Assembly (NCBI GenBank): GCA_046328535.1
Contig: JAXLWJ010000004.1
Span: forward strand, 87,800-151,799
DNA length: 64,000 bases
Reading direction: 5' to 3'
DNA from: Anaerolineae bacterium
GTDB taxonomy: Bacteria > Chloroflexota > Anaerolineae > Epilineales > JAHCIE01
Below are positions 27,708-58,321 of the stretch, piece after piece. Below the pieces are notes generated by a model. It was not told the DNA's origin, made no database searches, and saw only the letters and a list, made by a program, of their open reading frames with translations. Both the position numbers and the translations under genes were made by a program. Each line of letters starts with the position of its first letter. Position 1 is the stretch's first letter.

Positions 27708-30700
27708 TCATCTCTGCGCTCCGTACTTGATTGTCGGGAAGTAGAGCGTGTAGGGGCGCGTGGGCGGCGCCGCCGTGTGCTGCACCCGCAGCGGCGGCTG
27801 GAGCGGCGATGGGGCGCCGGCCCGGTCCACCGCCCTGGCCCGTAGCGCGAGCGGGCCATCCGGCGCGGGGACGACGGCGGCCCACAGTGCCGCATTCGCC
27901 TCGGCTTTGGCCGCCGCGCTGCCGCACAACGTGTTCGCCAGCAGCCTGGCCGCCGCCGATCCCACCAGGGCGTCGGTCCACGTCTGCCCGCCGTCCACGC
28001 TGACCTGCACACTGCCGACGCCCCACCCGTCGCGGGCCGTCCCCCACATCAGGATGCTGCCCTGCGGGAAGAGTCCAGGCACGCTTCGGGAACGGTCGCG
28101 CCCGGGCAGAGGGTAATCGAGGGTCGCCGTCGGCGCGACGTTGTCCACCGATCACTGTCTGCCACGCGCTCGGCGCGCCGACACCCGCCGCGTCCGTCGC
28201 GCGGACGCAGGCAGTGCCACGCCCTCCTCCTGCGGCGGACGCCAGGTGAGACGCCACGTTCGTGGGCCAGGCGGCAGCCCGATCATGTGGACGCCAGCGG
28301 GTAAGGCGCTGGGGCGACCCGCCACTCGCCGTCGTCCACCTGCACCTCGGACGCGCCCAATCGCCCCGGCGGTGGGGAACGGGTCCCACCACTGTCCCGA
28401 CCAAGCTCGGCGGACGCGGCGCGCACAGGCGCGGCGGAGGTCAGGGTCGCGGTGGGCGGCGTGTTGTCCACCGTGACCGACGTCGATCCCGGCGCGCTCA
28501 CCTGCCCGAAAACGTCGTAGGCGCGCGCCTGAACGACGAAACTGCCGCTCGCTGGCGCGTCAATGTCAATACCCCAGGCCTGCGACTGGAAGACGCCGCC
28601 GCCGGGTAGCGGGACCGCGCGCCACGCGCCATCCCCCACGCGCGCCTCGACGACGCTCACCCCGACGCATCCCGCGCCGCGTCCCGGTCACTGTCACCGC
28701 CCGCTGCGCACCGTCGCGCCCACCGGCAGGTTGATGCGCACGACCGGCGGGGCGTGGTCAACCGCCACACTCGCCCGCGCCTGCGCGAGGGTCACGTCGC
28801 CGCTCGGCGCGTTCGTCTTCACCGCCGCTGTCAGTGTCACTGCGTCTAGCGGGGCGACACTCGCCGCCACCCGCGCCATCACCGTGATGGGGCGCGCAGT
28901 CCAGGCGGCAGGTCGCCGAGTGGGATCGTCCAGTTCGGGCCGGCGGCTGGCTCGGCGCGCCCTGAACGGGTCGAGCGTCAGGCCCGGCGCTCGCGGCGAT
29001 ATCGAGCGTCACGCCTGTCAGCGGCACGCGGTCGAGGTTGCGGACATCCAGCGTCCAGACGACCCTGGCCCGCCGTGACCAGCGGCGGGGCGGCGCGCGG
29101 GCGGCGCACGCTCACGCTCACGTGGACGCCTTTCGGCTGGCCGTCGTTCGGCGCGGTGGTCGGCGTGATGCCCGCCCGGTGGTAGGCGTCCGTCCACGGG
29201 CCGCGCACCGACTGAGTCGTCGGGAAGACGCTCACCACTCGACCCTGGTCTGCGTCGAACGCCAGGAGGCGGATGTCGGCGGCGGATACGCTCGCGCCGA
29301 GACCGAACCAGGGCAGCGCCGAAGCTCGGTGTCACCGTCCGGCCCGGCGCGCACCGTCCCGGGACTCACGGGCTGCCACGCCGCGCCATCCCACTGCCAC
29401 ACGCCGGGCTGAGGCTGTAGCACGACGACATAGTCGGCGGCAAAGGGCAGTTGCTTGCCCGCGACGGCCTGGGCCGCGCTGCCGTCCGGGCCGGCCCACG
29501 GCGTCGTCGCGCCGCCTGGCCGGGTGTCCAGGTAGACGTAGCCCGTGCCAGCGCCCCAGCGCGCGCCGCGCCAGCCGAGGTAGAACCGCGCCGCGTCGAA
29601 ACTGGCCCCAGGCTCTGGGCGCGGGTCGGGCGCGGGTCACGTCCAGGCGCTCGCTGGCGAGGTCCCACTCGCCGCTGGCGACGTTCATCAGCCCGTCAAC
29701 GATGATAGACGACTGCCAGTCACCTGTTCCCCTTGTAGCGTCCCTTGTAGCCGACCGGCTCTGTGCTGACTGCGCGCTGGTCGGCCCTGCTGACTGCAGC
29801 GCTACGGGTCGCTCCCCTGCTGACTGAAGTCAGCGCTACCTTGAAGTCCTCCTGTGCTCTACGTGGTCTACGCTCTGTGCTGACTGGTCCAGGTATCGCT
29901 TCGGGTATCGCTTCGGACCCGCGCGGCCGTCCCCAGCATGCCACGGCCCGTAGTGGCGCGTCGTCGTGTTGCCGCCGCTGTCCTGCGCCTGGAGGTGGAC
30001 ATACCACGCCCGGCGCCCGGAAGTTGGCGGTGTAGGAGCGGCGGTGAACGCTGCGCCGCCGGCCGGTATCGTGCGGCTGATCTGGTCCACCACGGCGACG
30101 ACCGATGGCTCGCCGCTGCCGTCGTGGAGCGGCGCCCAGGAACAGGCTCGCCGAGGCAGGCGCGGTGGTGGGAGGCGGGGTCGGGCGACGCCGTGGAGAC
30201 GAGGGCGACGGGCCGAGGTTGTCCACCAGGAAGAAGCCGCTCCCGACGAAACGGTTGCCGGCGCGGTCCGTGGCGCGCACCCGCAGCGGGAAGCGCGTGT
30301 AGTCCGCCGAGCGGCGCGTGGTAGACGTAGGTCGGTGTTGTTCACCAGCTCGCTGGCCGGGCCACGTCGCGCCGCCGTCCACGCTGACATCACCGCCGCG
30401 ACCCCGCTCGTCGTGTCGCTGTAGGTCCGTTGAGGATGATCGTGCGCGTGATCGGCTGCGTCGTGGCGCGGATGTCCAGCGTCGGCGGGACATATCTTTG
30501 GTCAGGGTCACGCTGGTGTCCGTCGCCCCGCTAGCGGCGCTGCGGCCGGCTCGCAGGACGATGGTGTGGACGCCCTCGCTCGTCAGCGTGACCCCCTTGC
30601 TCCAGCTCGTGGCCCGCGCCAGCCGTTGTCGAGTGTCGCCATGCCCTGCGAGACGCCGTCCACCGGGACTTCGGCCTGGCCGGCGCCGTCCGTCGCGGCG

Positions 30701-31532
30701 AAGTGAACCGCGCCGGCCAGGGTGAGGGTCGTCGAGACGACGGCGCTGCCCCGGGGGCGGGCGAGGTCAGCGCCGCCTCGTTGCGCGTCGTCGCGACGCT
30801 GACCTGGGCTGTCTGGCTGCGGCCGACGTTGCCGGCGCGGTCCACGGCGATGGCCGTGACGGTGTGCGGGCCGTCGGGGAGGGCGACGGCCTGGCGGTGG
30901 GGTTCGGGCCGAGCGTCTGGGTGGCTGTCACAGCCGCGCCGTCCACGCTGAAGTACACGCGGGCGAGGTTGTTCTGGCTGACGCCGCCCACGGGGATCGT
31001 GTCCGACGCGGCCGCCTCGAGCGCCACGGCCGGCGCGCTCGTGACCAGGCTCGCCGTCGGGGTGATGAGGGTGACCGAGGGCGGTGTGCCGTCGGCGATG
31101 AACGCCGCCCGGAACAGACTCGTCGTCCGCGTGACAGTGTTCCCGACCTCGTCGGCCGGCCGCGTGTACAGGCGGTACAGGCCGTCGCCTGGTAGACGCC
31201 GCCGCCCGCCGCCATGTTCAGCGGCAGTGTCCAGTACGAGCCAACGGCCGGGCGTCGCCGGGGAGGCGTTGCGCCAGGCGGTCGGCGCGGGCATCGTCCT
31301 GGTCGGGCGGAACGCGCTGGCGTCTGGCGCGTAGCTGACGCCGACCTGCACCGCGGCGACGCCGAACTGCCGAGGGCGCACGAGGCGCCCCCCCCTTGCC
31401 GAAGAGCAGGCTCAGCGGCACCGCCAGCAGCCGGCGTAGCCCAGGTCGGCCCGGCCGCCGCCGCCGACGAGACCCGGCTGCCAGTCGCTCGGCGCGACGG
31501 CGTCCGGCGGGCGAGCCTAGAACGGGCTGTAG
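27708..31532 (-). pseudogene. Decayed C-terminal third of giant paralog 2 (Ig-like region plus C-terminal CBM9/DOMON-like module), with 14 or more frameshifts
   Basis: ORF fragments in all three minus frames are homologous in order to the copy-1 C-terminus and, more closely, to the stand-alone module 56085-58238 (e.g. 27708-28148, 28283-28660, 28978-29238, 29332-29688, 30767-31381). Total span 27708-41294 is 13587 bp versus 13605 bp for copy 1. Confidence 0.6.
29723..29916. repeat. 194-bp repeat-rich insertion at the module junction of copy 2, containing hairpin element C
   Basis: It interrupts ...RHYGPWHAGDGRAGP | GDWQSSIIVDG.... It contains tandem 12-13-bp direct repeats (gaagcgataccc x2; gctacaaggggac x2; cagtcagcacagagc x2) and the hairpin gctgactgaagtcagcgctac (29819-29839). 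Its length is not a multiple of 3. Confidence 0.5.
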
Positions 31533-34500
31533 CTAGTCGAGCCGTCGGCAGGGTTCGGGTCCGAACTGCGGGTCCTGGCCCTGGATGCTTGTTGGGTCGA
31601 GCTGGACGGCTCCGCCCGAGTCGCCACCGCTGTTTTGGTAGAACAGGTTGTACGCATTGAAGAGCTGCCCCTGCCCACTGTCTGTGACGCCGACGCCGCC
31701 GTTGTCGGCGAAGATGTTGAAGCGGGCGTGAACCCACGTGCCAGGGTCGGCCAGGATCAGCCCGCCGCCGCTGTTGTTGGCGACGGTGTTGAACAGGAAC
31801 ACGCCGGTCGAGGCGTTGTTGAAGACCGCCGCTGCGCCGCCGCTCGTTTGCAGGATGTTGTGGGTGATGGTGATGGCGTTGGAGTAGCCGGAGACGACGA
31901 CGTTGGCGTTGGCCGCGCCACTGCCCGCGTTTTGCAGCGTGAAGCCCGCGACCTCGACGTTCGTCACGCCGTTGAGGGTCAGGACATTGCCCGCGCCCCC
32001 TGCGTCAATGACGGTCGTCTCAGCGCCCGCGCCCACGAGCCGCACGCCGCTGCGGGGATTGAGCGACTCGGTGTACGTCCCTGGCGCGACGCCGACGGTG
32101 AACACGCCGTCAATCGGCGGGATGTGGTTCACGCCATCCTGGATGGTGGTGAATGCGTCCACGCCCCACTCCAGCCCGTCGTTGAGGCAGGTGGCGCAGT
32201 AGCTTGGCGAGACATACACCGCCGCCTGCGCTGCCTGCACGTAGCCGATGTCTACGCGCGCGCCGGTACCGGGCGGCGTCGGCAGGCTCGGATCGCCCGC
32301 GTCCACCAGCGGCGAGTCGGCCCGGGGGCGGAAGTCGAGGCGGCTGGGGTTCTCGAAGCGCGGGTCGGCGTAGACGTTGCCCTGGCCGGGCGGGTCGTTG
32401 GTCGGCAGCGCCTGGTCCTGGCCGTTGCGCCAGAAGGCGTTGAAGTCGTGGCGGCGGGTCGCCGCGCAGCCCTGGTAACTAAGGGCCGTCCCCGTGTGGT
32501 ACGCGAACACGGTGTCCTCGACGTCGAGGCTGCCGCAGTTGGCCGCCGCCACGCCGTTCACGTTGCTCATGAGGGTGTTGTTGGACAGTGTTGCCAGGGC
32601 GCCGCCCGCCGCGCCGTCAATGGCGACGGCCGTCGCCGTGTTGCGAATGATGGCGCGGGTGATGCTGATCTGCGCGCCCGCGTCAATGCCGAGGCCGTCC
32701 TGGCGGCCGTCGCCGGCCAGGGTGAGCAGCGCCAGGCTCGCGTCCTGCACGCCCTCCGCGCTGACCAGGCTACCGATGGTCGCGGTCGGCGGCGCGAGGA
32801 CTGTCAGGGCTGCGCCACTCCCGAAAATGCGCACGCCGTTGACGAGAGACACGCGCTCGCGGTACAGGCCTGGCTCGACGAGGACGCGCTGCGCGCCGCT
32901 GGCGATGGCCGATTGAATGTCGTTGAACGCCGTCACGTTCCAGGTGTGGCCGTTGTTGGCGCACTTCTCGCAGTAGGTGGGATTGACCCAGACTGGCGGG
33001 TGATACTGGTAGTAGCCCAGGTCGCCGCCGCCGTTGGCCTTGCCGATGGCGGCGGAGCCGGCGGCCAGGCGGAACACCCCGCGCGGCGTGTCGTAGAAGG
33101 CGGCCTGAGTGAGGGTCATGAACGCCGCCGCCGCGCCTGTCGGCGCGCTGGCCCAGTCGGACGCAGCGCCGGCGGGACTGGCGAAGCCGTTGTGGGTATT
33201 GAGGAACACCGTCTGAACGCCGCTGTTCTGCCACCACTGCGGCCGGGGCGCGGCGTTGGGCAGCGCCACCAGCAGGCTATCGCGGAGGTAGACGGCGTTG
33301 ACCAGCGGCGAGGTGTTGCTGAGCAGGCTGATGCCGCCGCCATTGGCGACCAGGGTCGCGTGCCGCACGTCCACGTTGGAGGCGCGCATGTCAATGCCGA
33401 CGCTATTGGGGCGGTCGAGGGACAGCAGGACGTTGTAGATGCGGATGTTGGCCGGGTCGTTGATGTCGGTGGAACCGGGCGCGCCGCCCCCGTTGACCTG
33501 GATAGCGGCGCTGGCGTTGCGGATCGTCAGGCGTTGCACCGTCACGCCCGCGCCGCCCGCGCCGCCGGGCGGGTAGACCTGGAGGCCGACCCCGCCGGCC
33601 GCGTCAATGAACACCGCGTCGGCGTCCGCCCCCTGGAGGGTCAGGTCGTTCTTGCCGGCCGGAATGCTCGCCGGGCCGTAGACGCCAGGGTTGATGTGGA
33701 TCGTGTCGCCCGACATGGCCGCATTCAGGGCGTCCTGGATGGTGGCGAACGCCGTGACGCCCCACATGTAGCCCTCGTTGGGGCAGGTGGCGCAATAGTC
33801 GTCGTCCACCTGGCGCGTGACGACCGCCGCCGCCTTCTGCGCCGCGAGCGGCGCGGCCGTGTTCTCGCCGCGCCCGCTCGTCGGCAGACTTGTCAGCGGG
33901 CGGGGGGCCGTGGCCGGGCCGAGGCTCAGCTCGGCGCGCAAGGCGCGGCGGGCCTCGCGCTTCGCCAGCGAGTCCAGTGCGCCCTGGGCCTGGGACGCGA
34001 TGAGCAGGTCCGATGAGGCGTCGCAGTTGACGTCAGCGCCGGCGGCGAAGGGGGCCGACGCGATCTTGTTGACGCTGGCGAGCTGCGCCTCCACCGGCTG
34101 GTTCTGGGCGAGGTCGGTCGCGCCGAGGACGAGGTAGGCGCGACCGCTGATTGTTCCCAGCACAATATCGTTCTTGCCGTCGGCGTTGACGTCGCCGACG
34201 CCCGCGATGGGGCCATTGGGGGCCGGCGCGGTGTAGGTGAACGTCACGTCCGGCGTCATGTTCGGTCGCCAGCCGGCGGCGCGGCCGTAGGCGATGTGCG
34301 GGGTCGCGCCGTCGCTGTAGGCGAAGTCGGGCAGGCCGTCCCCGTTCACGTCGCCGAGCGGCGCGACTTGCCCCCCAGCGCCGGCCGCGCCGTGGAAGCT
34401 GCCGTTGGCGGCCTGGGTCGGGTTGACGAGCGGCGGCGCCGCATGCGCTCCGTAGGACGGCCCGCCCAGCATGACATAGACGCCGGCCCCGCCGCCGAGG

Positions 34501-37500
34501 GCGTTCGTCGGGTCGGCGATGGCGATGTCGGCGTAGCGGTCGCCGTTGAGGTCGCCGACGCCCACGGCGGGCGCGCCGGCGGGGGGGAAGGCGAACGCAG
34601 CGGCCGCGACCGGGCGGCGGGTGGCGGTGTCGTCGAGGGCGAAGGTCTGGGCCGCGCCGAGGGGGCCGGTCGTGGCGTTGCTGCCGAGAACGAGGTAGAC
34701 AGCGCCCTGGCCGCCGGGTCGGCCGGTGACGCCGATGAGGAGGTCGTCGAAGCCGTCGCCGTTGACGTCGCCCGCCGCCGCCAGCCACTGCCCCACCGCC
34801 CCGCTCTTGACGGTGAACACCTTGCCGCGCTCGCGGTAGGCGGCCTGGGCGAGGGATGCGGGGCCGAGGTCGCCGAGCGGCCCGGTCTGCCCGAAGATAA
34901 GGTAGACGCGGTTGTTGGTCGGGTCACCGACGAGGAAGTCGCTCAGGCCGTCGCCGTTCACGTCGCCCGCCGGGGCAAGGTATGCGCCTAGCCCACCGTT
35001 TGCCGTCTGCCCCAGGACCCGCCCCCCGCCATCATCGAGGGCGAAGGCGGCGGGAACGACCGGCCAGCCGCCCGCCTTGCCGTAGACGATGTCCACCTGC
35101 CCGGCGCCCGCTTTGCCGCTGACAGCGCTGGCCGGCAAGCCGACCGCGAAGTCGGCGCGGCCGTCGCCGTTGATGTCACCGAGCCAGACGACGGTCTGGG
35201 TGATGCTGTCGGTCGGGCCGTGGGGCATCACCCAGGCCGTCGCGGCGGCGTAGGCGTCCAGGGGCGCGCCGGCGTTCGTCGCCAGCGGTTGCGGGCGCGC
35301 TGGCAGCGGCACATAACCCAGGTCGTCGGCGTGGCCCTCGAAGGTGAACACACCCGTGGCGCTCACCTGGTCGGTGGCGTTGGACCACACGTCACCCGGC
35401 GGTAGGAGATCCACGAAGACCGTGACGCGCGCCGCCGCGCCGACCTGCCCCAGCGCGTCCACGGCGCGGACGGCGAGGGTGTGGCCGCCGTACTGGGCGT
35501 CGTCCAGAAGCCAGTCATAGCTCCAGGCGGCGGTTGGCGGCGGGCTGGCGCTAACCTCGGCGACGTTGCGCCAGGGACGGTTGTCTATGCTGAGTTGCAC
35601 GACCGACACGCCCGCCACGGTTGGCGAGCCGGACACGGTATCGCTGGCGACGCCGGTGAGGGTCACGGTATGGTTGCGGATGTTCTGGAGGGCCTGGCCG
35701 TCTTGGACGTTAGCGAAGGCGGCCACCGGCGGCGTGCGATCCACCACGAGGGGCGCGCCCGGCCCCGGCGTCTCGACGTGTCCGACGTAGTCGGTGGCGC
35801 GGGACTGCACCCTGTAGGGGCCGTCGCCCGCCGCGGCCCAGACGTAGCTCCACGTGTCCGCGCCCGCCGCCGTCTGCCAGCCCGTGTCGTAGGCGCTGCC
35901 GCCCGGATACGTCTGCCCCTGGATGCGCGTCTCGACCTTGACCGCCCACGATGTGGGGTCGGCCGCGCCCCCGCCGACGACGAAGCGCGTGGCGCTGATG
36001 ACCTGCCCCGGTGTCGGCGCGTTGATGGTGGACGACGGGGGGTCCGCGTCTACGCGCAGCTCGCGGGTGGTGGAGAGGACGCGCGCGGCGTTGGCGACGG
36101 GGTCGGTGTACGGCACGGTCACTCGCAGCGTCGTCGGCCCGGACTGGCCGATGGACGGGGCGATTGTCCCCTGCATCGTGGCCGTCAGCGCCTCGCCGGG
36201 CAGGAGGGGCTGCCGGGGGAAGGGCCAGGTCAGCCCGGCTGCGCCCGTCGTCGGCGTCGGCGGGGTATAGCCTGCCGAGCCAGTCTGCGTCAGGAGGTTC
36301 AGCGCGCCGAGCGCGGCGGTGTCGTCGCCGAGCGTCATGGGCCGGTCCAGGGCATTGGCGGTGGTGTTGACGACGTTGAGGGTCGCGGTCACGGGGCCGC
36401 CCGGCTTGACGACGGTGACTACCGAGCCGTTGTGGGACGTTGTCGGCGCAACGGCGAGGCTCAGGCCCGGCGCGGTGTTGGGCGCCCACGGGCTTGTCGC
36501 CGCCGCGCGCTCCTGGCTGTCGGTCAGGCCGTCGGCGTCCTCGTCGGCCTTGTTCGGGTCGGAGCAGACGTGGAAGGCGTGGCCGCTGTCGAGGCGAACG
36601 TCCCACCCGCCGACGACCTTGCCTGTCGCGTCGAGGTGGCACACCTCTTCGCCGTCGAGCAGTCCGTCGCCATCGGTATTCTTGTTGCGGGGGTCGAGGC
36701 CGAGGCGCACCTCGTCGCCGTCGCTCAAGCCGTCGCCGTCGGTGTCGGCCTTCGCCGGGTCGGTCTTGGCAATGTAGACCTCGTAGCCGTCGCTGAGGCC
36801 GTCGCCGTCGGTGTCCCACTTCGTCGCGTCAGTTCCGTATTGGGCTTCGAGGGCGTCCGGCAGGCCGTCGCCGTCGCGGTCCGTGTTCCACCCCGCATAG
36901 CCGGCGTTGCTGATAGGGTCCTTGACATCCCAGCCCCACAGCGAGTCCAGGTCGGCGGGCAGGATATCCAGGTAGAGGGTCGAGCGGGCCTGCGCATAGT
37001 CGGCGGGGTTGTCCTGCGGGTTCGGGCCGTAGGTGTAGTTCATGTCGGCGCTACAGTTGTACTTGATGAACCCTTCGCACTTCTGATACGCCAGGTTCGC
37101 CTCGAGCTGGTTGAGGAAGGGCAGCAGCAGGTTGCGGCCGGCCTGGGTCATCTTCATGCTGATGGACAGGGTGTTGGCGCAGTTCTTCGACCCCTTGCCC
37201 GCCACCGTGTCGTCGCTGTCGCAGATGGCGCTGTGATCGGCGGCGGCGCCGGCCGCGATGCTGTTGGTCAGGGAGTAGTTCGCTGTCCAGCTCGGCGACT
37301 GGCCGTTGTTGAAGCCGGGGTCGGTGTCTATGCGGGCGACGGCCCAGCTACTCTTCACGTCGTCAATGGTCCCCTGCCGCCCGTTGCAGAACTGACACCC
37401 CAGGTCCAGGGAACTTGTGTCAACGCTCTTGACGCTCGAGCTGGCGGTCAGGGTGGTGACGGCTGTCATGGTCAGCGCGATGGTCGAGCTGATGAGCGTC

Positions 37501-41294: not shown

Positions 41295-41350
41295 CGTAAC
41301 ACTCCCTCGAAAATAAGCCTGGGCTGAAGCGGTGGGGCAAGGTGTTGGAC

Positions 41351-41390: not shown

Positions 41391-41422
41391 AGTTGCTAGG
41401 CATAACAGCGGGGCGTGAAGTG

Positions 41423-41450: not shown

Positions 41451-41500
41451 GCTGGTGCCGCCTGCGGCGCATCCTCACGGATGAAAGTCGCGCCCCAGAT

Positions 41501-41559
41501 GCCGACTGAAGTCGGCGCTACACATCCCCCGTCTCCTGTAGCGCCGACTTCCAGTCGGC
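41501..41559. repeat. Double-hairpin element B (gccgactgaagtcggcgctaca ... tgtagcgccgacttccagtcggc)
   Basis: Same architecture as element A: two CGACT/AGTCG hairpins within an inverted-repeat frame, with compensatory stem changes. It abuts the IS630 left end. Confidence 0.5.
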
Positions 41560-41590
41560 TCTCCGCAAGGCACGGCGTCGTCGTGGCCCG

Positions 41591-42756
41591 GCGTCGCCGC
41601 CGATTTATGAACTTTAACAAAATAGGCCAGTCATAGACCGACATAGCGCAGCAAATCCGACGAGGCCTCGGCGTACTGGTCGAGCCAGGCTTGAACCAGG
41701 CTCTGTAGGTCGGGCCAGCGATCCGCCAGATCATGCTGATGCAACAACTCTTGGTACAGCTTGCGCCAGACCTTCTCGATGGGGTTCGTCCACGGCGCGT
41801 ACGTCGGCAAGGGCAGCAACAGGATCTTGGTGTTGACCAACGCCGCCAGCACGTCAGGATGGAAGTGGACGGGCCAATTGTCGAGCACAACGAAGATGAG
41901 GTCAACGTCAGGATACGCCGCGTCCAAGGCCTTGAAGTAGCGGATCAAGGTGTGGCGGTCGAACTTGGCGCGTACCAAGTGAACCGTCGCCCGGTTCGCT
42001 CGCATAGAGGGTGCCAGCGATGCGACGCTTGCGCGTGGAGGCAGACCCTGACGGGCATGCGGCTTGTCGCTGCGGCACGGGCATAGCCCTGAGACGCTGG
42101 GCGCACATAAGTCAACTCGTCTGGTAGAGCAGCGCACGCCCTTGCAGGCTCGGCGTGCGCCAGCGCCCGCGCTTGCCCGATGAGGGCCATCTTCTCGTCG
42201 TAGGCCAGGTCGGGCGAGTGGACGTAGCGGCTGGCCACGTTTGTAGTGCACCGAAGCCGCAGGATCTTGTGCACGCCGGGCAATGACAGCGTCTTCAGCC
42301 AGGGTACAGCCTGGCGCAGGGTGCCACCGCGAACGGGCAGGCCGACCAGGCGCGGCGGGTGGTGGATGATCGTCCCTCAGCCTGGGCCTCTCCGCCGTCG
42401 CGTGCTGAGGGGAAAGCGGGCTTGCGCCCGCGTCCCGCACGAATGCGTAAGCCGTCCAGCCCTTCCGCTAAGTAGTGGATCCAGCCTCGAACCGTGTCTT
42501 TGTCGCGCCGCTTCAGCAGACCGTGGGCGGCGATGTCACGGGTGGATTGGCCGCCGATGGACTTGATGATGGCGGCAGCCTGCTCGCGGACATACGGCAG
42601 CGGATGCGTGTCGCGCGTGCGGCGTAGTTCGTCCAGTTGGGTCTCGCCAAGTCGTACTTGAACTTCTTAGGCATTGTCCTCTCCTGCTCAGACGTATGCC
42701 GTTGAGACCCTAAGTGTACTATGACTGGTCTATTTTGTTAAAGTTCATCAATCGGC
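41591..42756 (-). mobile_element. IS630/Tc1-mariner-family insertion sequence (~1.17 kb) with degenerate multi-frameshifted transposase
   Basis: 38-bp imperfect terminal inverted repeats (gccgatttatgaactttaacaaaataggccagtcatag at 41591-41628; reverse complement at 42719-42756). Minus-strand transposase fragments include an HTH region (...RGRKPAFP...) and a DDE C-terminus with DNWPVH and NPIEKVW motifs, spread across 3 or more frames. Confidence 0.75.
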
Positions 42757-42842
42757 GTCTGGTACGGTCAAGCCCGCTCAAGCAGGCTGGCTATACGACG
42801 TCGTTCCCAACCGAGCCTGCTCAGCAGGCTTCGTCCACTCAG

Positions 42843-42863
42843 CCACCGACTTCGAGTCGGTGG
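42843..42863. repeat. Hairpin element D (ccaccgact-tcg-agtcggtgg) in the 3' flank of truncated copy 3, alongside two other perfect hairpins (agcctgc-tca-gcaggct; ccgggc-cgca-gcccgg)
   Basis: Read directly. Same CGACT/AGTCG core as elements A-C. Confidence 0.4.
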
Positions 42864-42962
42864 CGAAGGCGGACGGCAACGCCCCGGACCGGCTTTCATT
42901 GCAGGCACAAGGCATCCGGGCCGCAGCCCGGACCCCTCGCTCCGTTCGGGGTGACAGCGACA

Positions 42963-48900: not shown

Positions 48901-51900
48901 AGGAAGGGTGGTGGGGATGGAGGAGGGCGCTGTGACCCCAGAAGGGCCCCAACCCTCTCCCACGGGGAGAGGGGGCCAGAAATGGAGCCTGTCCCCACCG
49001 GCAACGCCGCCTCGGGAACATGGGGCGCGCGCCCGAAGCTCGGCTCGCTGGCCTTCGCCGTGGTCGCCGTCGAGGGCAGGACCAGCAGGTCCGACGAGAG
49101 ATCGCAGTTGAGGTCCGCGCCCGCAGCGAACGGCGCGGAGGCCACGCGGCCGACACTGGTGAGGGTGGCGGCGATGTCGGGGGTGGCCGGCAGGCTGGCC
49201 GCGCCGTGGATGACGTAGGCCGTGTTCGCCGACGTACCGAGGACAATGTCGTTGTAGCCGTCGGCGTTGACGTCGCCGGCGGCGGCGATGACGCCAGAGG
49301 GCGGCGGCGTGTAGCCGCTGAACGTGACGCTGGGCGCCCACGCGCCGCTGGCGCGGCCGAGGACCAGGCGCGGGGACGCGCCGCTGCTATAGATGAAGTC
49401 GGCCAGGCCGTCGCGGTTCACGTCGCCGAGCGGCACAACCTGCGCGCCCAGCGGCGCATCGCCAGGCAGGGCCGCCACAGCGCGGCTGCGGTCGAGGGTC
49501 TGGGGTGCGCCGCCGAGGCGCGGCGTCTGGAACGTCGGCGAGCCGAGGAACAGGTAAACGGCCGCCCCGCCGCCCAGGCTGTTGTTCGGGTCGGCGACGG
49601 CGAAGTCGGCCAGCTGGTCGCCGTTGACGTCGCCAACGCCGCTGAAGCCTGCGCCAGCGAGGTTGATGGGCAGCCGCGCCGAGGCATCCGCCGTGACATC
49701 GCGCACCCCACCCGGCCAGCGGCGGCGGCCCTGGATGAGATAGAGGTGGCCCTGGTGGGCCGCGTTGTCTGCGCCGATGAGCAGGTCCCCCACGCCGTCG
49801 CCGTTGACGTCGCCCGCCGCCGCCACGAACGCGCCGAGGCTGTCGCCGCCGATGCCCGTGGTGAACACAACGCCGCGGCTCGATTGAGTGGGCTGTCGGA
49901 GCTGCGCCACGTCCCAATCCTGGCCGAGCGGCCCCGTCTGCCCAAAGACAACGTACACCACGCCGTTGACCCCATCGCCGATGAGGATGTCGGCCAGGCC
50001 GTCGCCGTTGACATCGCCGGCCGGGGCGAGGGTCTGGCCGAAGCCGGTTGTCTGGCTCGCCACGAGGCTGCTCTCGGCGGCGGACAACGCCGCCATCGCC
50101 GGGGGAACCGGCCAGCCGCCCGGCCGCCCGTTGAGGATCACGACGCGCCCGGTCCCGTTGCGCGCGGCGGGCAGGCCGACGGCGGCGTCGGCGAGGCCGT
50201 CGCCGTTGACGTCGCCCAGCCAGACCACCGTCGCGCCGGCCAGGTCGCCCTCGGCGTCCGGCGCGAGTTGGACCGTGGCGCTCAGGACGGCGTCCACCGT
50301 GCCTTCCAGGGGCGCGGGGCGCGCGGGCAGCGGAACGTAGCCGGTGTCGTCGGCGTGACCGAGGAGGGCGATGGGCTGGCCGGTCTGGACATCGGTCACG
50401 CTGTTGGCGATGTTGACGGCGGGCGGCACAAGGTCAACGATGACGCTGCGCGTTTGCGCCTGGCCCACCTGCCCCAGGCCGTCTACGGCGCGCACGGCCA
50501 GGCTGTGCCGGCCGCTGGCTTTGGCGTCGAGCTTCCACGTCCACGACCAGTTCACGGTCTGCGGGTACGGCGCGCGCTTTTCGAGAACGGTCTGCCACGG
50601 GCGGCCGTCAATGGTCAACTCCACCGCCTGAACGCCGGCCACCGCCGACGCGCCGGACAGCAGGTCGGTCGCGCTCCCCTGGAGGCTCACGCTCGCCCCG
50701 CCGAGGCTGTCCTTGACCAGGCCGTTGATGACCTGGCCGTCCGTCAGGCCGCTGAAACTCGCGCCCGGCGCGGTGTTGTCAACGATGACGGCGGCCGTGG
50801 CGTCGGCGGACTCGTTGCCGACAGCGTCGAGGGCGTGGGCGCGCAGGGTGTACGCGCCGTCCTTCGGCAGAGGCGACCACGTCCAGGCCCAGCTTTCGGC
50901 GCCGTCGGCGGTTTGCCAGGGCGCGACGCCGTCCACGCTCACCTGCACCTGCGATATCCAGGTGATGTCGTCCCTGGCCCCGCCCCCGACGACGTATGAA
51001 GTCCCCTTGATGGCGGTGTTGGCAATCGGCGCAGCGATGGTGATTGTTGGCGCGACAGCGTCTATGACGACCGGCAGGGTCCGGCTGATGGCTTTGGTAG
51101 AGCCGTCGGTGGGATCGGTGTAGGGCATGGTGAGGCTGAGTGCGCTCGGCCGCGAGCCGCCGCCGAGCGCCGCCGCCTGCCACGTGACGGTCATCGCCTC
51201 GCCCGAGTAGAGCGGCTTCTGGCTCAAGTCCCACACGCTACACGTCTGCCCGCCGACCGTCCCCGCCGTCGGCGTCGGCGGCGTGTAGCCGGCGCTGGGC
51301 TGCGTGGCCGTCAGCGTCGGCGCGGCGAAGTCCGCGTTGGGCAGGCACAGTTGGAGCGGCTTGTCCAGGGCGCCGGCCGTCTGGTCGGCCAGTTGGAACT
51401 GGGCGGTGAGCGCCTGGCCCGGCTTGAGCAGCGTGAGGGTCGCGCCGGCGTGCTGAGTCGTCGGCTGCTGGATGGCGGCGCGCAGGCGCGGCGCGGTGTT
51501 CGCGCCGAAGGGACTCAGGCCGAAGGCGCGCTCCTGGCTGTCTTGCAGCTCGTCGGAGTCGGCGTCGGGGTCCAGCGGGTTCGAGCAGATGCGATATCCC
51601 TGGCCCTGCCGCTTGCCGGGTGGGCTGACGAACCACCCGCCGACGAGGCGCGGCGTTGGCCCGCTCGTATCCACGTGGCAGACCTCCTCGCCGTCGAGCA
51701 GGCCGTCCTTGTCGCTGTCGGCGACGGCGACCGACGTGCCGAGAATGATCTCCTCGCGGTCCGTCAGCCCGTCGCCGTCGGTGTCGGCCTTCGTGGGGTC
51801 CGTCCCCAGCGCGGCGCGGTTCTGCACCTCCCAGCCGTCGCTCAGGCCGTCGCCGTCCGTGTCCCACTTCGTCGGGTCGAGGCCGAGCGCCGCCTCCTGG

Positions 51901-54900
51901 GCGTCGGGAATGCCGTCGCCGTCCTTGTCCGGGTTGGTGATCTGGTCCCAGTTCCACAGCCCATCCACCGTATTGGGCAACACGTCGAGGGTGAGCGGCT
52001 GCGTCGCCTGCGCCCAGGCGTCGGCGTCGTCGGACTTGGGGCTAGAGTCGACCGTCGAGTCGGCGCTGCACACGCGCACCAGGACGGCCCACCAGCACTT
52101 CTGGTAGCGCAGCGAGAAGTTGACAAAGCTCGTGACGTGGATGGCCGTGTTGCGGGCCGCCTGGGCCGGCGTGAAGCGGGCCGTGACCGCGCTGCCGCAC
52201 TTCTTCGACGTGCCGTCCATCACGCAGGCGCCCTGGCCGTAGGTCGCCTGGGCGTCGCCTGACGCCCACTCGGCGTAGGCATAGCTCTGGGCCACGTCGT
52301 CGGCGCTGCCGGCGCGCGAGTACACCCAGTTCCACTCGTCGTCGCCCGGCCCGACCTCGACCGTCGTCGTCAGCGATGCCCCGAAGGTGACAGAGTTGCT
52401 GACAACGGTCCCCTGGTTCTGGTCGCCCAGCGTCAGCGTCAGCGGCCCACTCTGGACGGCGTTGCTGCTCGGCAGCTGGGAGTAGAAGGCGAACTGCACC
52501 AGGAAGTCGGCCAGCCACGACCCCAGGTAGTTGTAGGTGTGCAGCGGGTTCCAGTCGCCGGTAATCAGGGCAACGATGAGGTAGAGCAGCACGGCCAAAA
52601 TGACCTCGACCAGCAGGCCGACGCCTGTGTCGGCCACGGCAATCAGCACGAGCGCCAGGACAAGCTGCAACACCGCGATAATCGTGGCGGCGATGTCATT
52701 GGACAGCTCGACGTCCGTCTGCATGTGGGACACGTCGTCGCTGTAGCCGTGGAAACTCGTCCAGATTGTGACAAGCTCGACGACGGTGGCGAGGACGGCG
52801 ATGGCGACGGCGATGCGGCCCAGCGCCTTGGCGCTCGACGCCACGGCCTCGGCGGCTTCCTCACCGGCCCCGGTCGTCTCGGCGGCGACCTCGGCCGCCT
52901 CGGTGAGATTGCTGGCGGCGGCGCGCGCGGCCCAGCGGATGCCTTGCGGGATGAAGCGCAGGTAGGGCAGCGCCATGGTCGCCACGCCGCCGAAGGCGTG
53001 GACAATGGGAACTGCGCCCGCGCTCAAAGCGGGCGACTGGCCCCACGTCGTCGCTTCCCACTGCTGGAAGCCCGCCGTCGCGCCCTGCTGGTCCACGTCG
53101 GCGGCCAGTTCGTCCAGGGCGTAGGCGGCGGCGAGATAGCCGGGCAGCGTCGTCTGCTGCGGGCGGTTCAACTGAGTAAAGATGGCGGTGTCGTCGGCCT
53201 GGGGCTGGAGGAGGGGCTTGCCGTTCACGGCGACGATCTTCACCAGGCCAGCGTACCACGTTAGGAACAGGGCCTTGATGTAGCGTTCGGCGTCCTTCGC
53301 AGCGTCGAAGCTCCCATAGCGGCGGTCCAGCTCGGCCAGCGCCCCGTTCATGGTCAGCGCGCGCCAGGCGGGGCCGCCCGCGCCGGCCTGGCCCTGGTGA
53401 TACATCTGCACCCCCACCTGGCGTACCGTCGCCAGGGCGTTGTAGCTCAACGCCATGTCCAGGCCCAGGCTGTCGCCGCTGTCGGTGATCGTCACGCCGC
53501 CGGCCGGCCCGGCCTCCATGCTGAGGCTGCCGGCCGTCTCTTGGTAGGCGACGACCAGGGTCGGGGTGAGGGTCGCGCCGTAGTTCGCGCTCAGGAAGCT
53601 CTGCGTCGTGGTCATGGTCGTCGCGGCCAGCGCCTCATCGCGGTGGGCATAGGTGTTGTAGGCGACCTTGACGGGCGCGGCGACGCCCCACGTCTCGGTG
53701 ACCGGCGTTGTCGAGGCGGTGAACCGCCCGACGACCGCCGACAGGTCGGGCTGGAGCGCAGCCAGGTAGGACATGCCCAGGCCCGACACAAGGTTGAAGA
53801 CCTCCCGCGCCTCGTCCGGCGCGCTCGCGCTGATCTCGGGCGCGCTCGGCACGCCGAACAGCGCCACCTGGACGTTAGCGCTCTCGCCGACGGTCATGCC
53901 GGTGACGCGGAAGCTCGGCTCGACGTAGGACACGACGATGGACTGCGTCGTGTCCACGCCCCACGTCGCGCACGTCGTGCCACTGTAGGCGACACACTTC
54001 TGTTGGTCGAGCTTCGCCTGCGTCAGCCAGCCCAGGCGCATGTCGGAGAGTTGCAGCGGCGTCGCGCTCTCGGCCGGGGTGAAGGCGAGGCGCGCCTCGA
54101 ACGCGCTGACTGCGCCGTTGCTCTCCACGGTGGACAGCGGCACGAGGTAGCGGAAGGAGCCGTCCGCGTTGGCTTTGGCCGTCACGCCGTACTGGGCCGC
54201 CAGGCTCAGGCTCGTCGTGCTGCTCAGGTCGAGCACCGGGATGAGCTTGATATCATCGATGGAGTTGTCCAGGTCCTGGATCTGCGCCTGGTTGTCGTAG
54301 GGCCAGTCGAGGTACGTCGTGGTGTAGCGCAGGTGGGACACGTCTTGCGGCTGTACCTGCACGTCCAGGTAGACGTAGGTGTCATTGTGAGCCGCGTCGC
54401 CGGGTTTAGAGATGCTGATCCCATAAGCCGGGCGGTAGGGGAGCGCCTTGTACGGCGACAGGTCGGGGCCGTCCGGCACGCCGTCATTGTCGTTGTCCTC
54501 GTCCCAGGCGTTCGGGATGCCGTCGCCGTCAGAGTCGAGGCCCGCCGGGTCAGCGGCGAGCCACTTCGCGTTCCACTCCTGACCGTCGTCAATGCCGTCG
54601 TGGTTGGAGTCGCGCTGGAGCGGGTCCGTGGTCCAGGTCTGCGTCACGCCGTTGGCGGTGATCGGGAAGCCTTGCAGCTCCAGGGTGTCAGTGATGCCGT
54701 CGCCGTCGGTGTCGGCCAGGCGGTAGTCGGTACCGAGGCAGCGCTCGGTCTTGTTGCTCAGCCCGTCGCCATCGTCGTCGCCATTGGGGTCAACGCCGTC
54801 AGGCAGGCTGCCGCAGTCGGCGACCGCGTCCGTTAGGGTTGGCGTGTTGGCGCTGGCGGGCGCGGGGCGCGGGGCGGCGAACTCGGCGGCCAGGGCGGCG

Positions 54901-56066
54901 ACGCGATCCGGCTCGCGCGGCGAATCGGTCAAGCCCAGGGCTGATAGCGCAGACGGGAGTGTCTCGCGCGATTCGCTACGCTCCCGGAAACGGACGATCT
55001 GGCTCGCCTGCGCCAGCGGTGTTCCGATCATGGAGGCGATGACTGTGACGACGACGACCGCGTAGAGGGCGTGACGACGGCGGCGGAAGGCCCACACCAC
55101 CAGGACCGACGCAAGGGCGGCCGCGCCAGCGGCGAGGGTCGCCGCATCAAAGGGGACCGGAATCGCGGGCAGCCCGACGCGGCCCCCCCCATTGGCCGAC
55201 GGCGCCGCCCGCCCGGCGACAGCCACCCCGGCCGGGGCGTCAATCGGCGCGACCGCCGCGCCAAAGTCGCGGTAGTCTACCTGGGCCTGCACGCGGGCGT
55301 CGTTCGTGGCGCTGATTTGCGGCAGGGTCAGGTCAACGACGACGCGGCGCGGCAGGCCGTCGCCGTCTATCCAGACCTCGCCCGCGCCGCTCATCTTCTG
55401 GTAGACGGCGGGCGCCTGGACTTCGACGCCGGGCGGCAGCTCGCGCTGGGCGAGGGTCTGGAGGCGCTCGCGCTGGATCTCGGCGTAGCGCGCCCCGTCG
55501 AGGGTGAAACGGTAGTGGCTGAACCCGGCCGGGGCCGCCATTGCTTCCACGTCCCGCGCCACGCTCAACAGGCTCAGGGCGTCGGCGGCCGGCGCGGCCG
55601 CGCCCAGCGGGTTTTGAACGACGCGCCACTGGCCCGCGTGGCCGACATACGCCGCGTCGCCGACCATCACCAGTTGCACCACCCCCGCGCCCTGGCCGGA
55701 CCACGCCGCCCCGGCCGCGCCCGCCTCTGGCGTTAGACGGCCGACGGCGAGCGTCAGCCGCGCCCGGTCCGGCAGGGCGGCCTCGCCCTCGATGCGCAGG
55801 CGGGCGTGGCTGTCGCCGCGCCCCACGTTGGCAGGGAGGGCGCGCGGCGTGAGGGTCTGCTGCACGTCGGAGGTCAGCCGATACGTGCCGGCCTCCTGGG
55901 CGCGCTGCCAGGCGCGCGCGACGGCGGCCGATGGCTCGGAGGGGTGCGGCAGCCCGAGCGCCAGGTTCACGGTGGGCCGCACAAGGGCCGCGAGGGCAAG
56001 GGTGACGAGAATGAGGGCGGGCAGCAGCGTGGTGAGGCAGCGGATTATGCGAGGCTGGTTGCGCAT
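42963..56066 (-). pseudogene. Giant modular surface protein, paralog 3: two frameshifts, a copy-specific extra propeller insertion, and truncation at the C-module boundary next to the IS630 element (possibly functional as a truncated variant if the frameshifts are assembly errors)
   Basis: Three ORF pieces in different frames (47829-56066, 43421-49246, 42963-43424) together reproduce the copy-1 domain order. The frame switches lie at about 48800-48990 (G/C-tract hairpin cluster) and about 43425-43480. It ends ...HYGPWYVGAGN* where copy 1 continues into the C-terminal module. SD-like GGAG lies 9 nt upstream of ATG 56064-56066. Only 18 bp separate it from the upstream stand-alone module gene. 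Confidence 0.55.
48811..48980. repeat. Intragenic G/C-tract hairpin cluster (cctcccccctttgggggagg; ccctctcccacggggagaggg; ccccacaagtgggg) at the copy-3 frameshift
   Basis: Three perfect hairpins built from G- and C-homopolymer runs lie within a linker that is short and hairpin-free in copies 1 and 2. All three minus frames are open here. Confidence 0.4.
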
Positions 56067-56084
56067 CGTCAGGAACTCCTGGCT

Positions 56085-58238
56085 CTACTGCGGACCGCGA
56101 TGCGGATCGGCGCGCTGCGCGGCAAAGGGCAGGTACAGGCGATAGGGAGGCGCGGGCGGCGCGCCACCGTGCTGCACCCGCAGCGGCGGCTTCAGGCTCT
56201 CCGCGTTGCCCGCCCTGTCTACGGCGCGGCTCCGCAGCGCCAGCTCGCCGGCGGGGGCCGGCAGGCTCGCGGCCCACAGCGTCGCTTCCCCTTTCTCAGC
56301 GATCGCGCCGGCGCATAGAACACGGGCCAGGAAGGCTGCCGCCTCGGGGCCAGTCAGCGCCGCCGTCCACGTCTGCCCGCCGTCCACGCTTGCCTGGACG
56401 CCCGCCAGCGACCAGCCGTCCCGCGCCGTCCCCCACATCAGGATGTGGCCCGCCGGCAGCGTCAGGCACGCCTCCGGAACGACGCCGCCCGCGCTGGGAT
56501 AGGCGATGGTAGAGGTGGGGCGGACGGTATCCACAGTGAACGCGGTCCACGCGCTGGCGGGGCCGACGTTGCCGGCGGCGTCCGTGGCGCGCGTCCGCAC
56601 GCGGTGCGGCACGCCCTCCTCGGTCGGGACGCGCCACGCATAGCGCCACAGCCGCGCGCCCAACGGCGGTAGCGGCGGGATCGCTGGCAGGAAGAGGTAT
56701 GGTGGCGGGGCAAGCTGCCAGGGGCCATCGTCCACCTGCGCCTCGACGCGCGCGATGCTGCCGAGCGCGGGGAAGGGATCCACTACTGTCCCCGACACGA
56801 TAAGCGTCGAGTCCTTGACGACATTGCGGCTGAGGCTGATACTAGCAATGGGTGGGACGTTATCCACGAGCACGGCCGCTGACACCGGCGCGCTCGTCTG
56901 GCCGAAGATGTCATGCCCACGCGCCTGCACGACGAAGCTGCCGCCCGACGGCGCATCAATGCCGATGCTCCACCCAAGGCGCGTGAAGATGCCGCCGACG
57001 CTGGTTGGCGGCTGCCGCCACGGCCCGTCCCCCACCCGCACCTCGACGAAGCCGATGCCGGAGCCGTCGCTCGCCGTCCCTGACACGGTCGCCGGGCCGC
57101 TGCGCATCGTCGCGCCGGCCGGCAGGGCGATCTTCACGACCGGCGGCGCATTGTCCACCGTCAGACTCGCCTGCGACTGCGCGAGGGTCACAGGGCCGCT
57201 GGGCGCGTTCGCCTTCACCTGCGCCGTGACCGTCACCGCGTCTATGGCGGCGACAGAGGCGGCGACGCGCGCGGTGACGGTGATGGGCGAGCGGGCGCCG
57301 GGCGCGAGATCGCCAAGCGGGATCGTCCAGCGTCCTGCCGCCGCCGGCCCCGCCGCGCCCTGGATCGCCTCGAGGGTCAGGCCGGGGCTGGCGCCGACGT
57401 CCAGCGTCACGTCTGTCACCGGGACGCGGTCCAGGTTGCGTATGGTCAGCAGCCACAGCGACGCGCCGCCAGGGCCGACGACGCGGGCCGCGCCGCGCGG
57501 GGTGGCGACGTTGAGGCTGACGTGATTGCCCGTGGGCTGGCCGGCGTTGGGGACCGTCGTCGGCGCGAGGTTCGTCCAGTGGTAGGCGCTCGCCCACGGG
57601 CCGAGCACCGACTGGTTGGTGGGGAAGACGCTGATGATGCGGCCGTGGTCGTCGTCGAAGGCCAGCAGGCGCAGGTCAACCGCGCCAACGCTCGCTCCCA
57701 GGTCGGCCCACGGCAGCCGGAGTTCGGTGTCGCCGTTCGGCCCGTTCACACCGTCTACCGCGCCACCATCGCGCCACGCCGCGCCATCCCAGCGCATCGC
57801 GCGGGCGCGGGGGCCAGTCAGGTAGACAAGGTAGCCGGCGGGGAAGGGCAGCGACTTGCCCTTGACCGCCGCCGCGCCGTCGGGGCCGCTCCAGGGCGTC
57901 GTCGTGCCGCCGGGGCTTACGCCGATATAGATGTAGCCGGCGCCGTTGACACCCCAGTTCGCGCCGCGCCAGCCCAGGTAGAGGTTGGCGGCGTCGAAGC
58001 TGGCCCACAGACTCTGGGAGGTGGTCGGGCGGGGGTCTACGTCGAGCCGCTCGCTCGCCAACCGCCACTCGCCGCGCTCGACATCCAGCTTGCCGTCTAC
58101 GATGATGGACGACTGCCAGCCGTCGGCCGTCGTCCAGGCGGGGCGGGCCGCCTGCGCACCCTGGGCGCGGCCCAACGACAGCAGCGCGGTGAGCAGCAGG
58201 GCGACAACCAGGCGCAGGCGAACGGTTCGACTCGTCAT
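56085..58238 (-). CDS. Secreted stand-alone homolog of the giant-protein C-terminal module (CBM9/DOMON-like plus Ig-like domains), 717 aa with its own signal peptide
   Basis: True start is ATG at 58236-58238 (MTSRTVRLRLVVALLLTALLSLGRAQGAQA, an AxA-type signal), with AGGGAG 4 nt upstream. The ORF-track 78-aa extension to 58472 is Arg-rich noise. The mature N-terminus AARPAWTTADGWQSSIIVDG aligns with the exact junction ...GGGAAKDADGAWQSSIQVNG in copy 1. The C-terminus aligns with the copy-1 C-terminus. Confidence 0.8.
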   Translation of the reverse strand: MTSRTVRLRLVVALLLTALLSLGRAQGAQAARPAWTTADGWQSSIIVDGKLDVERGEWRLASERLDVDPRPTTSQSLWASFDAANLYLGWRGANWGVNGAGYIYIGVSPGGTTTPWSGPDGAAAVKGKSLPFPAGYLVYLTGPRARAMRWDGAAWRDGGAVDGVNGPNGDTELRLPWADLGASVGAVDLRLLAFDDDHGRIISVFPTNQSVLGPWASAYHWTNLAPTTVPNAGQPTGNHVSLNVATPRGAARVVGPGGASLWLLTIRNLDRVPVTDVTLDVGASPGLTLEAIQGAAGPAAAGRWTIPLGDLAPGARSPITVTARVAASVAAIDAVTVTAQVKANAPSGPVTLAQSQASLTVDNAPPVVKIALPAGATMRSGPATVSGTASDGSGIGFVEVRVGDGPWRQPPTSVGGIFTRLGWSIGIDAPSGGSFVVQARGHDIFGQTSAPVSAAVLVDNVPPIASISLSRNVVKDSTLIVSGTVVDPFPALGSIARVEAQVDDGPWQLAPPPYLFLPAIPPLPPLGARLWRYAWRVPTEEGVPHRVRTRATDAAGNVGPASAWTAFTVDTVRPTSTIAYPSAGGVVPEACLTLPAGHILMWGTARDGWSLAGVQASVDGGQTWTAALTGPEAAAFLARVLCAGAIAEKGEATLWAASLPAPAGELALRSRAVDRAGNAESLKPPLRVQHGGAPPAPPYRLYLPFAAQRADPHRGPQ

Positions 58239-58321
58239 CAACTCCCTATCCTCACGGCCCACCGGCCGCCTGGCCCGCGCCCGGTGAGCCAGGCGGCGCT
58301 GGAATGGCAGGGCAACGGCGC

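Follow-up and report, generated by a model that had tools for sequence, protein, structure and literature searches.

The junction before the C-terminal module of giant Anaerolineae proteins: a predicted linker, an apparently old gene split and a probable assembly patch

Why should one short junction, shared by four genes in a single array, look different in each of them? The question is raised by a stretch of 64,000 nucleotides (nt) from an Anaerolineae bacterium (assembly GCA_046328535.1, contig JAXLWJ010000004.1, positions 87,800 to 151,799; hereafter the window), which carries three genes for giant proteins (G1, G2 and G3) and a gene for a stand-alone secreted module (S). A first-pass annotation had found the junction before this C-terminal module seamless in G1, interrupted in G2 by a 194-bp tandem-repeat and hairpin insertion followed by a decayed module, closed by a stop codon in G3, and placed directly after a signal peptide in S; it took these for four states produced by module shuffling at a sharply defined hotspot, of a kind not expected from ordinary decay of paralogues. 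All four can be located in the window (Table 1). Comparison with related genomes and with independent assemblies suggests, however, that they are not independent events, as the states of G3 and S belong to one old split and that of G2 is mostly an artefact of sequence quality. Taken as a whole, a reading that combines a linker, an ancestral fusion, an old split between S and G3 and an assembly patch in G2 has, in our estimate, a probability of about 0.8.

The junction as a predicted inter-domain linker

The proteins in question are Anaerolineae giants that are secreted or located at the cell surface. Across members of 4,100-5,800 amino acids (aa), the junction follows one pattern, in which ...RH[YF]GPW is followed by a linker and then by WQSSI.VDG.... 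The last Ig-like domain of the body ends in RH[YF]GPW[YFL]V, and the C-terminal module, of roughly 690 aa and five beta-sandwich domains, has WQSSI.VDG as its N-terminal edge. In an AlphaFold2 model of residues 3690-4100 of G1, the final strand of the body ends in ...RHFGPWLVG, the predicted local distance difference test (pLDDT) score drops to under 50 across GGGAAK, after which another beta domain follows; in the model of S, residues 1-41 are disordered and the protein is folded from residue 42 (WQSS) onwards, in five beta-sandwich domains. These models thus describe the junction as a short, disordered, low-complexity linker between the last Ig-like domain of the body and the module. G1, whose repeats and domains are of the TSP3, FG-GAP, Ig-like and beta-helix types, bears out its description as seamless, with a continuous open reading frame (ORF) and a linker of 16 aa.

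We searched S against 1.84 billion representative proteins, which gave 119 matches at E ≤ 1e-30. Most of the stronger full-module matches are C-terminal parts of giants of roughly 3,200-5,800 aa, and the strongest of them begin at about residues 27-48 of S, at or just before WQSS; of the short matches that we checked, most are contig-edge or truncated fragments. Fused homologues with 32-45% identity run across the junction. Counted from GPW to the motif W[QARST]S[ST], the linker of fused forms has 12-41 aa and is rich in G, A, S and P, with a far longer insert in a more distant homologue (P0014), and among the compared forms its DNA is conserved in neither sequence nor length. From this distribution, the fused form appears to be both ancestral and near-universal.

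The best database relatives come from Anaerolineae metagenome-assembled genomes. NCBIfam and Pfam returned only generic domains, PDB structures similar in fold to S were all generic Ig-like arrays (S-layer protein 7ptp, SiiE 2yn3 and macroglobulins), and two metagenome pattern scans for the WQSSIIVDG coding motif had no match. Close to their other end, the modules share a conserved ...[YR]x[LI][YWL][LFM]P, in S (near 56085) and in G1 (near 11812) as well as in homologues, with examples such as YRLYLPF, YSLYFPYV, RLWLPTII and PLWMPLVV, followed by 6-33 residues. To our knowledge this motif fits no known sorting signal; G3, as it has no module, lacks it.

A split pair and a suspect stretch of assembly

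S starts with a stretch that by inspection resembles a signal peptide (MTSRTVRLRLVVALLLTALLSLGRAQGAQA) and reaches WQSSI at residue 41, much as the first-pass annotation had described. Its account of G3 also holds, in that the frame ends ...RHYGPWYVGAGN-TGA and is followed by hairpins and an IS630-type element with a DDE_3 match, and the frame of G3 in the window additionally shifts at about 48990-48770 and 43640-43424. Orthologues of S with 717 aa and 75-78% identity occur in several other assemblies. Two loci, L001 (STL-CHL22) and L004 (GCA_039810265.1), allow the pair of S and a giant to be observed directly: both have the divergent regulator, S and the giant in the same arrangement, with 17 nt between S and the giant, and their giants are intact (4314 and 4321 aa) and share 82-83% identity with G3 over its N-terminal ~2,360 aa. 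S lies immediately upstream of a giant gene in the Logan contigs L002 and L003 too.

When species-representative genomes were scanned, STL-CHL22 and STL-CHL21 proved to carry the complete orthologous array. The G3 orthologues of both (L020 in CHL22; L018, which is P0015, in CHL21) stop at the same codon position as G3, after ...GPWYVGAGS and ...GPWYVGAAN, respectively, with the next giant beginning 40-300 nt past the stop, and no remnant of a module follows the stop in the window, CHL22 or CHL21. A more distant giant with the same type of body (type B, see below), from the binchicken_co60_4 genome (L017), stops at the junction as well, after ...GPWYVESN. Since the stop is conserved in orthologues, it is no recent lesion. 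S and G3 complement each other, and by this comparison their two states apparently go back to a single gene split that is old and fixed. G3, with its divergent type-B body, ends right after GPW, while the module would be made separately from the upstream S, using its own signal peptide and a promoter of the giant-gene type.

Whether the two products also work as one is a more tentative matter. We consider it rather unlikely that S and the module-less G3 form a conserved two-gene ‘split giant’, in which the module is secreted by itself and docks to or acts beside the body, while the modules of all giant paralogues in a genome are homogenized by conversion bounded at RHYGPW. If true, this would point to a shared partner of the module, for example an envelope anchor, perhaps through the C-terminal ...[YR]xL[YW][LF]P.

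G2 is a different case. In the window, GPW ends at 29941 and WQSS starts at 29718, the intervening 222 nt contain two in-frame stops, two 12-nt tandem duplications and short palindromes, and some 3.5 kb around the linker are split into many frames. The G2 orthologues in CHL22 and CHL21 are fused and intact. Compared with both of them, the window differs by 47 small indels from 31562 to 28066, while the 10 kb upstream are free of them, and window-specific substitutions are not in excess in the patch. Once corrected for indels, the G2 tail has no internal stop and no nonsense substitutions over about 1250 codons, and its window-specific ratio of nonsynonymous to synonymous changes (N/S) is 0.75. 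The G2 body has a ratio of 0.63, which does not differ significantly from that of the tail (Fisher p = 0.43), and G1, G3 and S have ratios of 0.51-0.57. A homologue search with the frame-corrected tail returned nothing above 44% identity, but it also missed the 78%-identical orthologues. Across G1, the G2 body, G3 and S, the window-specific ratio (0.51-0.63) is higher than that of the sister genomes (0.23-0.49) in every compared gene.

An exact look-up of the neighbouring AAA_21 protein led us to short-read contigs of a near-identical strain in several runs. Two of these, L026 and L027, come from separate samples and independent short-read assemblies, agree at every position over 8,774 nt and span positions 22382-31883 of the window. 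All 52 gap events between them and the window fall within 28073-31561, where the mismatch is 2.09%, whereas outside this patch the mismatch is 0.20% (a roughly tenfold difference) and the flanking 6 kb contain no gaps. Fifty of the gap events are of at most 4 nt, and the other two are extra pieces of 44 and 51 nt in the linker. Both contigs read through the G2 tail in one ORF of 1367 aa or more, which predicts an intact fused G2 of 4505 aa with an open linker of 41 aa, GPW-YVGTAARSEAIPEAIPVALTSVSTEPTKVGATRDATRGTGD-WQSS. Because these contigs are intact and every gap is confined to the patch, errors of assembly most likely account for the ‘decayed module’ and for roughly half of the ‘194-bp insertion’; both are present in the window as the first-pass annotation described them, but they are not reproduced in the independent contigs. 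Gene calls inside 28073-31561 are consequently unreliable. We also considered G2 as a former split gene with a signal peptide before WQSS, and rejected this, given that there is no hydrophobic stretch and that the orthologues are fused.

What remains in the G2 linker, two 12-nt tandem duplications and one palindromic doublet, is real and in frame. The doublet consists of inverted copies of a 21-nt palindromic unit, GTAGCGCTGACTTCAGTCAGC (29839-29819)...GCCGACTAAAGTCGGCGCTAC, the palindrome being written GTAGCGC-YGACTTCAGTCRGC. The motif GTAGCGCYGACTTCAGTCRGC has two matches in the window, one in the linker and one in the intergenic region upstream of G2, against none expected; beyond the window, there is one doublet in L008 and none in 23 other loci. 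The insertion preserves the reading frame in L026 and L027 and in CHL21, where the G2 orthologue has the doublet in frame in an open 34-aa linker, and homologues without it exist: the linker has 25 aa in the CHL22 orthologue of G2 and 16-17 aa in G1-type proteins. The G2 linker would thus have grown to 41 aa through the two tandem duplications, with the doublet, which resembles repetitive extragenic palindromic (REP) sequences, translated in frame. No target duplication could be recognized for the doublet, of which only three copies were seen in the DNA covered. As the RNA fold of the insertion in its window version is no stabler than that of shuffled sequences (z = 0.5), the term ‘hairpin insertion’ is weakly apt for it. 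A further hairpin-rich segment lies within G3 (Table 1); at the same site, STL-CHL22 has about 70 nt and L004 a shorter hairpin inside an intact gene.

A second stretch, covering the end of G3 and part of the IS630-type element (41950-43640), shows similar symptoms. The end of G3 has four small indels at 43640-43424 relative to two orthologues, and the IS630 transposase has at least nine frame switches across its first ~720 nt while its peptide sequence is preserved. By analogy with G2, this is probably another unpolished patch, and the frameshifts of G3 and IS630 would have a similar cause. The IS630-type element itself is absent from CHL21 and CHL22; its inverted repeats are at least 19 nt long, and its right flank starts with TA, while its left flank, which lies within the suspect patch, reads GA. 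The element splits a palindrome, in that its flanks CGCCGATT and AATCGGCG (42730-42760 and 41595-41625) are reverse complements of each other.

Exchange of modules and the weighing of alternatives

Bodies and modules tell different histories. The bodies fall into a type A (G1, G2, P0062 and P0063, 49-59% identical) and a type B (G3 and P0064, 52%), with about 39-43% identity between types, whereas the module tree groups by locus, as ((S, G2 module) 91%, G1 module) 89%, and P0062 and P0064 have modules that are 70% identical on bodies that are 41% identical. The module and body phylogenies disagree. At the DNA level, identity between P0062 and P0064 is 44-67% upstream, 80-86% from about 150-200 nt before GPW up to that motif, and then mostly 58-86% across the module to the stop. 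In the short-read binchicken_co60_4 genome, most 60-nt windows over the last ~650 nt of the two type-A paralogues L009 and L011 show 57-73% identity, but the final ~55 nt, from CGCCACTACGGGCCGTGG (RHYGPW) to the point where both contigs terminate, are 100% identical; identity together with a shared contig end is the signature of a shared, unresolvable module, and indicates that the modules of these paralogues are near 100% identical. The topologies of adjacent segments thus differ, and identity changes sharply at a definable boundary, from which module-level exchange appears to occur in this family. The breakpoints lie close together without coinciding, as they fall within the linker, at RHYGPW or some 150-200 nt ahead of GPW.

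The origin of S has to be judged against this background. Direct repeats resembling a promoter, TGTCACGC-N25-TGTCACGC, have two matches in the window compared to 0.01 expected, one upstream of S and one upstream of G1, with the repeats 33 nt apart and a -10-like hexamer next; the element is also found before S or G1 orthologues in L004 (9662-9702), L008 (12619-12659) and L024. P0006, a second complete gene for a stand-alone module, encodes 735 aa on a contig of its own and has TGTCACGC-type repeats at an 11-nt period upstream (L025, 588-616) and an N-terminus that resembles that of G2 (Smith-Waterman score of 60 compared to a shuffle maximum of 45). In the three paralogous loci L005, L012 and L013 a type-A giant is followed by a type-B giant, so S occupies the slot of a type-A giant. 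For these reasons (the shared promoter-like element, the N-terminus of P0006 and the A-B gene order) we prefer an origin of S by deletion of the body from an upstream type-A giant, whose 5' end would have been joined to the module, and G3 would have lost its own module. We found no TGTCACGC element directly before G3 or G2, which may reflect two transcription units, S-G3-G2 and G1. In their layout the TGTCACGC repeats are similar to sites bound by SARP-type regulators, and a DNA-binding domain of the SARP type is present in the adjacent regulator.

Evolutionary change across the family concentrates at the linker region, where we find variable length, an in-frame palindrome, a second stand-alone gene, and, in other pairs of paralogues, conversion tracts that end at the linker or up to ~200 nt upstream. 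The likely reasons are both selective and recombinational: only events that respect the domain boundary would leave working proteins, and the conserved coding motifs beside the linker could serve as islands of DNA identity where gene conversion between paralogues that have otherwise diverged starts or stops. As clustering at a disordered linker is predicted by selection on domain integrity, it is not unexpected, and of the ‘sharply defined hotspot’ the clustering stands while the coincidence of breakpoints does not. The module likewise is a real evolutionary unit, with its WQSSI edge and both fused and separate forms, although no mechanism that would shuffle it was seen. The strain has three real linker states, namely a fusion through a short linker, a fusion whose linker bears the repeat, and the split, which arose at different times and mostly long ago. 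Comparison of orthologous loci, which had been proposed as a way to recognize the ancestral state, points to the fused form, with the split conserved and the interrupted state of G2 absent.

Three alternatives can be set against these conclusions. The window shows four copies in differing states, module and body histories that disagree, with identity steps near the junction, and a palindromic element exactly in the G2 linker, all of which would suit a dedicated site that actively moves the module between fused and free forms and has yielded four independent states. We nevertheless regard such a site as very improbable, as the states of G3 and S are common to three other genomes at 75-83% identity, and hence old, the interrupted state is missing from the short-read contigs, the linker DNA is unconserved, and the breakpoints are scattered over ~200 nt. 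Neither a recombinase nor a conserved DNA site was found at the junction, and the IS630-type element lies downstream of the G3 stop and is absent from the sister genomes. A genuine pseudogene allele, in which the G2 tail, the end of G3 and IS630 are truly decaying and the short-read contigs represent an intact sister strain, is also improbable, if less so. It would have to reconcile 50 small indels with ~65 excess mismatches in 3.5 kb, which is far from natural ratios, and the tail has no nonsense substitutions once its frame is corrected, its N/S does not differ significantly from that of the body, the edges of the patch are sharp with no gaps in the 6 kb outside, and IS630 likewise has many frame switches while preserving its peptide; what speaks for it is the 0.2% mismatch outside the patch, which implies different strains or samples, the location of the lesions in possibly dispensable genes, and the raised N/S of the intact genes of the window (G1, the G2 body, the N-terminal part of G3, and S).

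The third alternative concerns the ancestry of S alone, which could be the former module of G3 itself, excised at the linker and re-inserted upstream. The two genes are adjacent and complementary, and together they make one body and one module. This origin, however, demands that the module was cut out precisely, inserted again and provided with a new signal peptide and promoter, while S has a promoter of the giant type, sits in the type-A slot of the paralogous A-B loci, and has a stand-alone counterpart, P0006, that keeps a type-A N-terminus. Its module is also nearer to those of type A (63% identity to G2, 58% to G1) than to that of the type-B giant P0064 (45%), although conversion could explain this. 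We therefore hold it to be an unlikely source of S, and retain body deletion from a type-A giant as the preferred one.

Several points nonetheless weigh against the reading that we favour. The independent short-read check of the patch covers 28073-31561 only, and L026 and L027 could derive from a co-occurring strain, with the window carrying a real degenerate allele, an idea that the near-1:1 ratio of indels to substitutions in the patch counters. The palindromic motif was seen in three copies in the loci examined, which are too few to establish it as a family of mobile repeats. Evidence for gene conversion consists of sliding-window identity and neighbour-joining bootstraps. As for S, its N-terminus has weak similarity to the N-termini of giants, and that of its orthologue P0004 none, and its ancestry is uncertain because gene conversion blurs the phylogeny of the modules.

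Surroundings of the locus and comparison with known systems

The window has a G+C content of about 70%. All giant and module genes are on its minus strand, in the order S, G3, G2 and G1, with a SARP-like regulator divergent from S (Table 1); this divergent placement of the regulator recurs in L001 and L004. Between G2 and G1 is a two-gene pair of AAA_21 and RloB, which we take to be an AbiL-like anti-phage cassette; we rejected 25710-27678 as an IS21 element, given the Pfam assignment to AAA_21 plus RloB. The cassette lies in a stretch of lower GC (60% in the 2-kb window 26001-28000 versus 67-73% in its neighbours), is absent from the orthologous STL-CHL21 and STL-CHL22 loci, and has an identical copy in the short-read contigs. 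The RloB sequence is identical in L026, where the gene is called differently, and an exact look-up gave no record for the RloB gene or for the window ORFs 29720-30511 and 42963-43424. Giants are numerous in the related genomes: STL-CHL22 has at least seven of ~4,100-4,500 aa, and L005, L012 and L013 (STL-CHL21 and STL-CHL22) carry additional giants in type-A then type-B pairs, those of L005 being separated by a 607-aa PD40/Tricorn-like gene.

Table 1. Positions of the genes, junctions, repeats and suspect stretches in the window
Feature	Position	Strand	Details
SARP/AfsR-like large regulator	58958..62398	+	Pfam: Trans_reg_C, BTAD, NB-ARC and TPR; divergent from S
Promoter-like direct repeats	58597..58637	-	TGTCACGC-N25-TGTCACGC then TATGCT; upstream of S
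S, stand-alone secreted-module gene	56085..58238	-	717 aa; signal-peptide-like residues 1-30; WQSSI 58118-58104
G3, type-B giant without module	42963..56066	-	Begins 18 nt past the S stop
Hairpin-rich extra segment in G3	48768..48989	-	~220 nt; units like CCCTCTCCCCGTGGGAGAGGG; one net frameshift
G3 end at junction	42963..42998	-	HYGPWYVGAGN then TGA 42965-42963
Second indel-rich stretch	41950..43640		G3 end and 5' two-thirds of IS630; suspected low-accuracy patch
IS630-type element	41607..42748	-	DDE_3, E = 1.7e-13; terminal inverted repeats 42748-42730 and 41625-41607; between G3 and G2
REP-like palindromic doublet	41501..41562	-	GCCGACTGGAAGTCGGCGCTAC...GTAGCGCCGACTTCAGTCGGC; intergenic, upstream of G2
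G2, type-A giant	27708..41294	-	Window ORF ends at 31533; in short-read contigs fused, predicted 4505 aa, stop 27710-27708
Low-accuracy patch	28073..31561		52 gap events and 2.09% mismatch versus short-read contigs of a near-identical strain
G2 linker, GPW to WQSS	29719..29940	-	222 nt in the window; 123 nt (41 aa, open) in L026/L027
AAA_21 and RloB two-gene cassette	25710..27678	+	Pfam; between G2 and G1
Second promoter-like element	25484..25524	-	TGTCACGC-N25-TGTCACGC; upstream of G1
G1, intact fused type-A giant	11812..25416	-	4534 aa; uninterrupted ORF
G1 junction	13873..13953	-	RHFGPW 13953-13936; 16-aa linker LVGASGGGAAKDADGA; WQSSI 13887-13873

The processes at the linker are already known, and it is the example, in an uncharacterized Anaerolineae family, that is new. 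S and G3 resemble the gene fissions and fusions of ‘Rosetta-stone’ pairs, as a domain that is almost always C-terminal is here encoded by its own neighbouring gene, the point of breakage falls within a disordered linker, and several genomes conserve each of the two parts; the fused form is the wider and older one, and S with an intact neighbouring giant is conserved in L001 and L004. The differences are that the free module lies upstream, not downstream, of the truncated gene, has its own signal peptide and promoter, and probably comes from another paralogue than G3. For the repeat-bearing linker of G2, the nearest parallel is found in the Rickettsia palindromic elements (RPEs) and other intragenic repeats of the MITE/REP type that are translated in frame, as reviewed in PMC10969869 (citing Ogata et al. 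2000, 2002). Like these, the G2-linker palindrome is also found between genes, is read in frame (L026, L027 and CHL21), is predicted to lie outside folded domains and is missing from homologues. Its unit is, however, ~21 nt per arm with three copies seen, compared to ~100-150 bp, and neither a conserved family of encoded peptides nor mobility nor a target duplication could be shown for it.

The exchange of modules recalls the concerted evolution of paralogous surface-protein genes, in that modules within a genome are far more alike than bodies and DNA identity changes in an abrupt step, but the converted unit is here the conserved end of the protein rather than a variable region, and neither antigenic-variation machinery nor silent cassettes are evident at this locus. 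As long secreted strings of beta-sandwich domains, with TSP3-type calcium-binding, FG-GAP and beta-helix repeats, the giants of the window are similar to giant Ig-like adhesins and S-layer proteins (SiiE, 2yn3; 7ptp), from which they differ in having no detectable sequence membership in a characterized adhesin family. The locus also carries a caution: what looked like a striking interrupted and decayed gene copy is, on our reading, a 3.5-kb low-accuracy assembly patch, recognizable by a burst of indels without matching substitutions or relaxed constraint and confirmed by independent short-read contigs. Set beside these known systems, it illustrates how giant surface proteins may evolve at one linker, through an old split, growth of the linker and homogenization of modules, and it suggests testable ideas about whether the module can function without the body.

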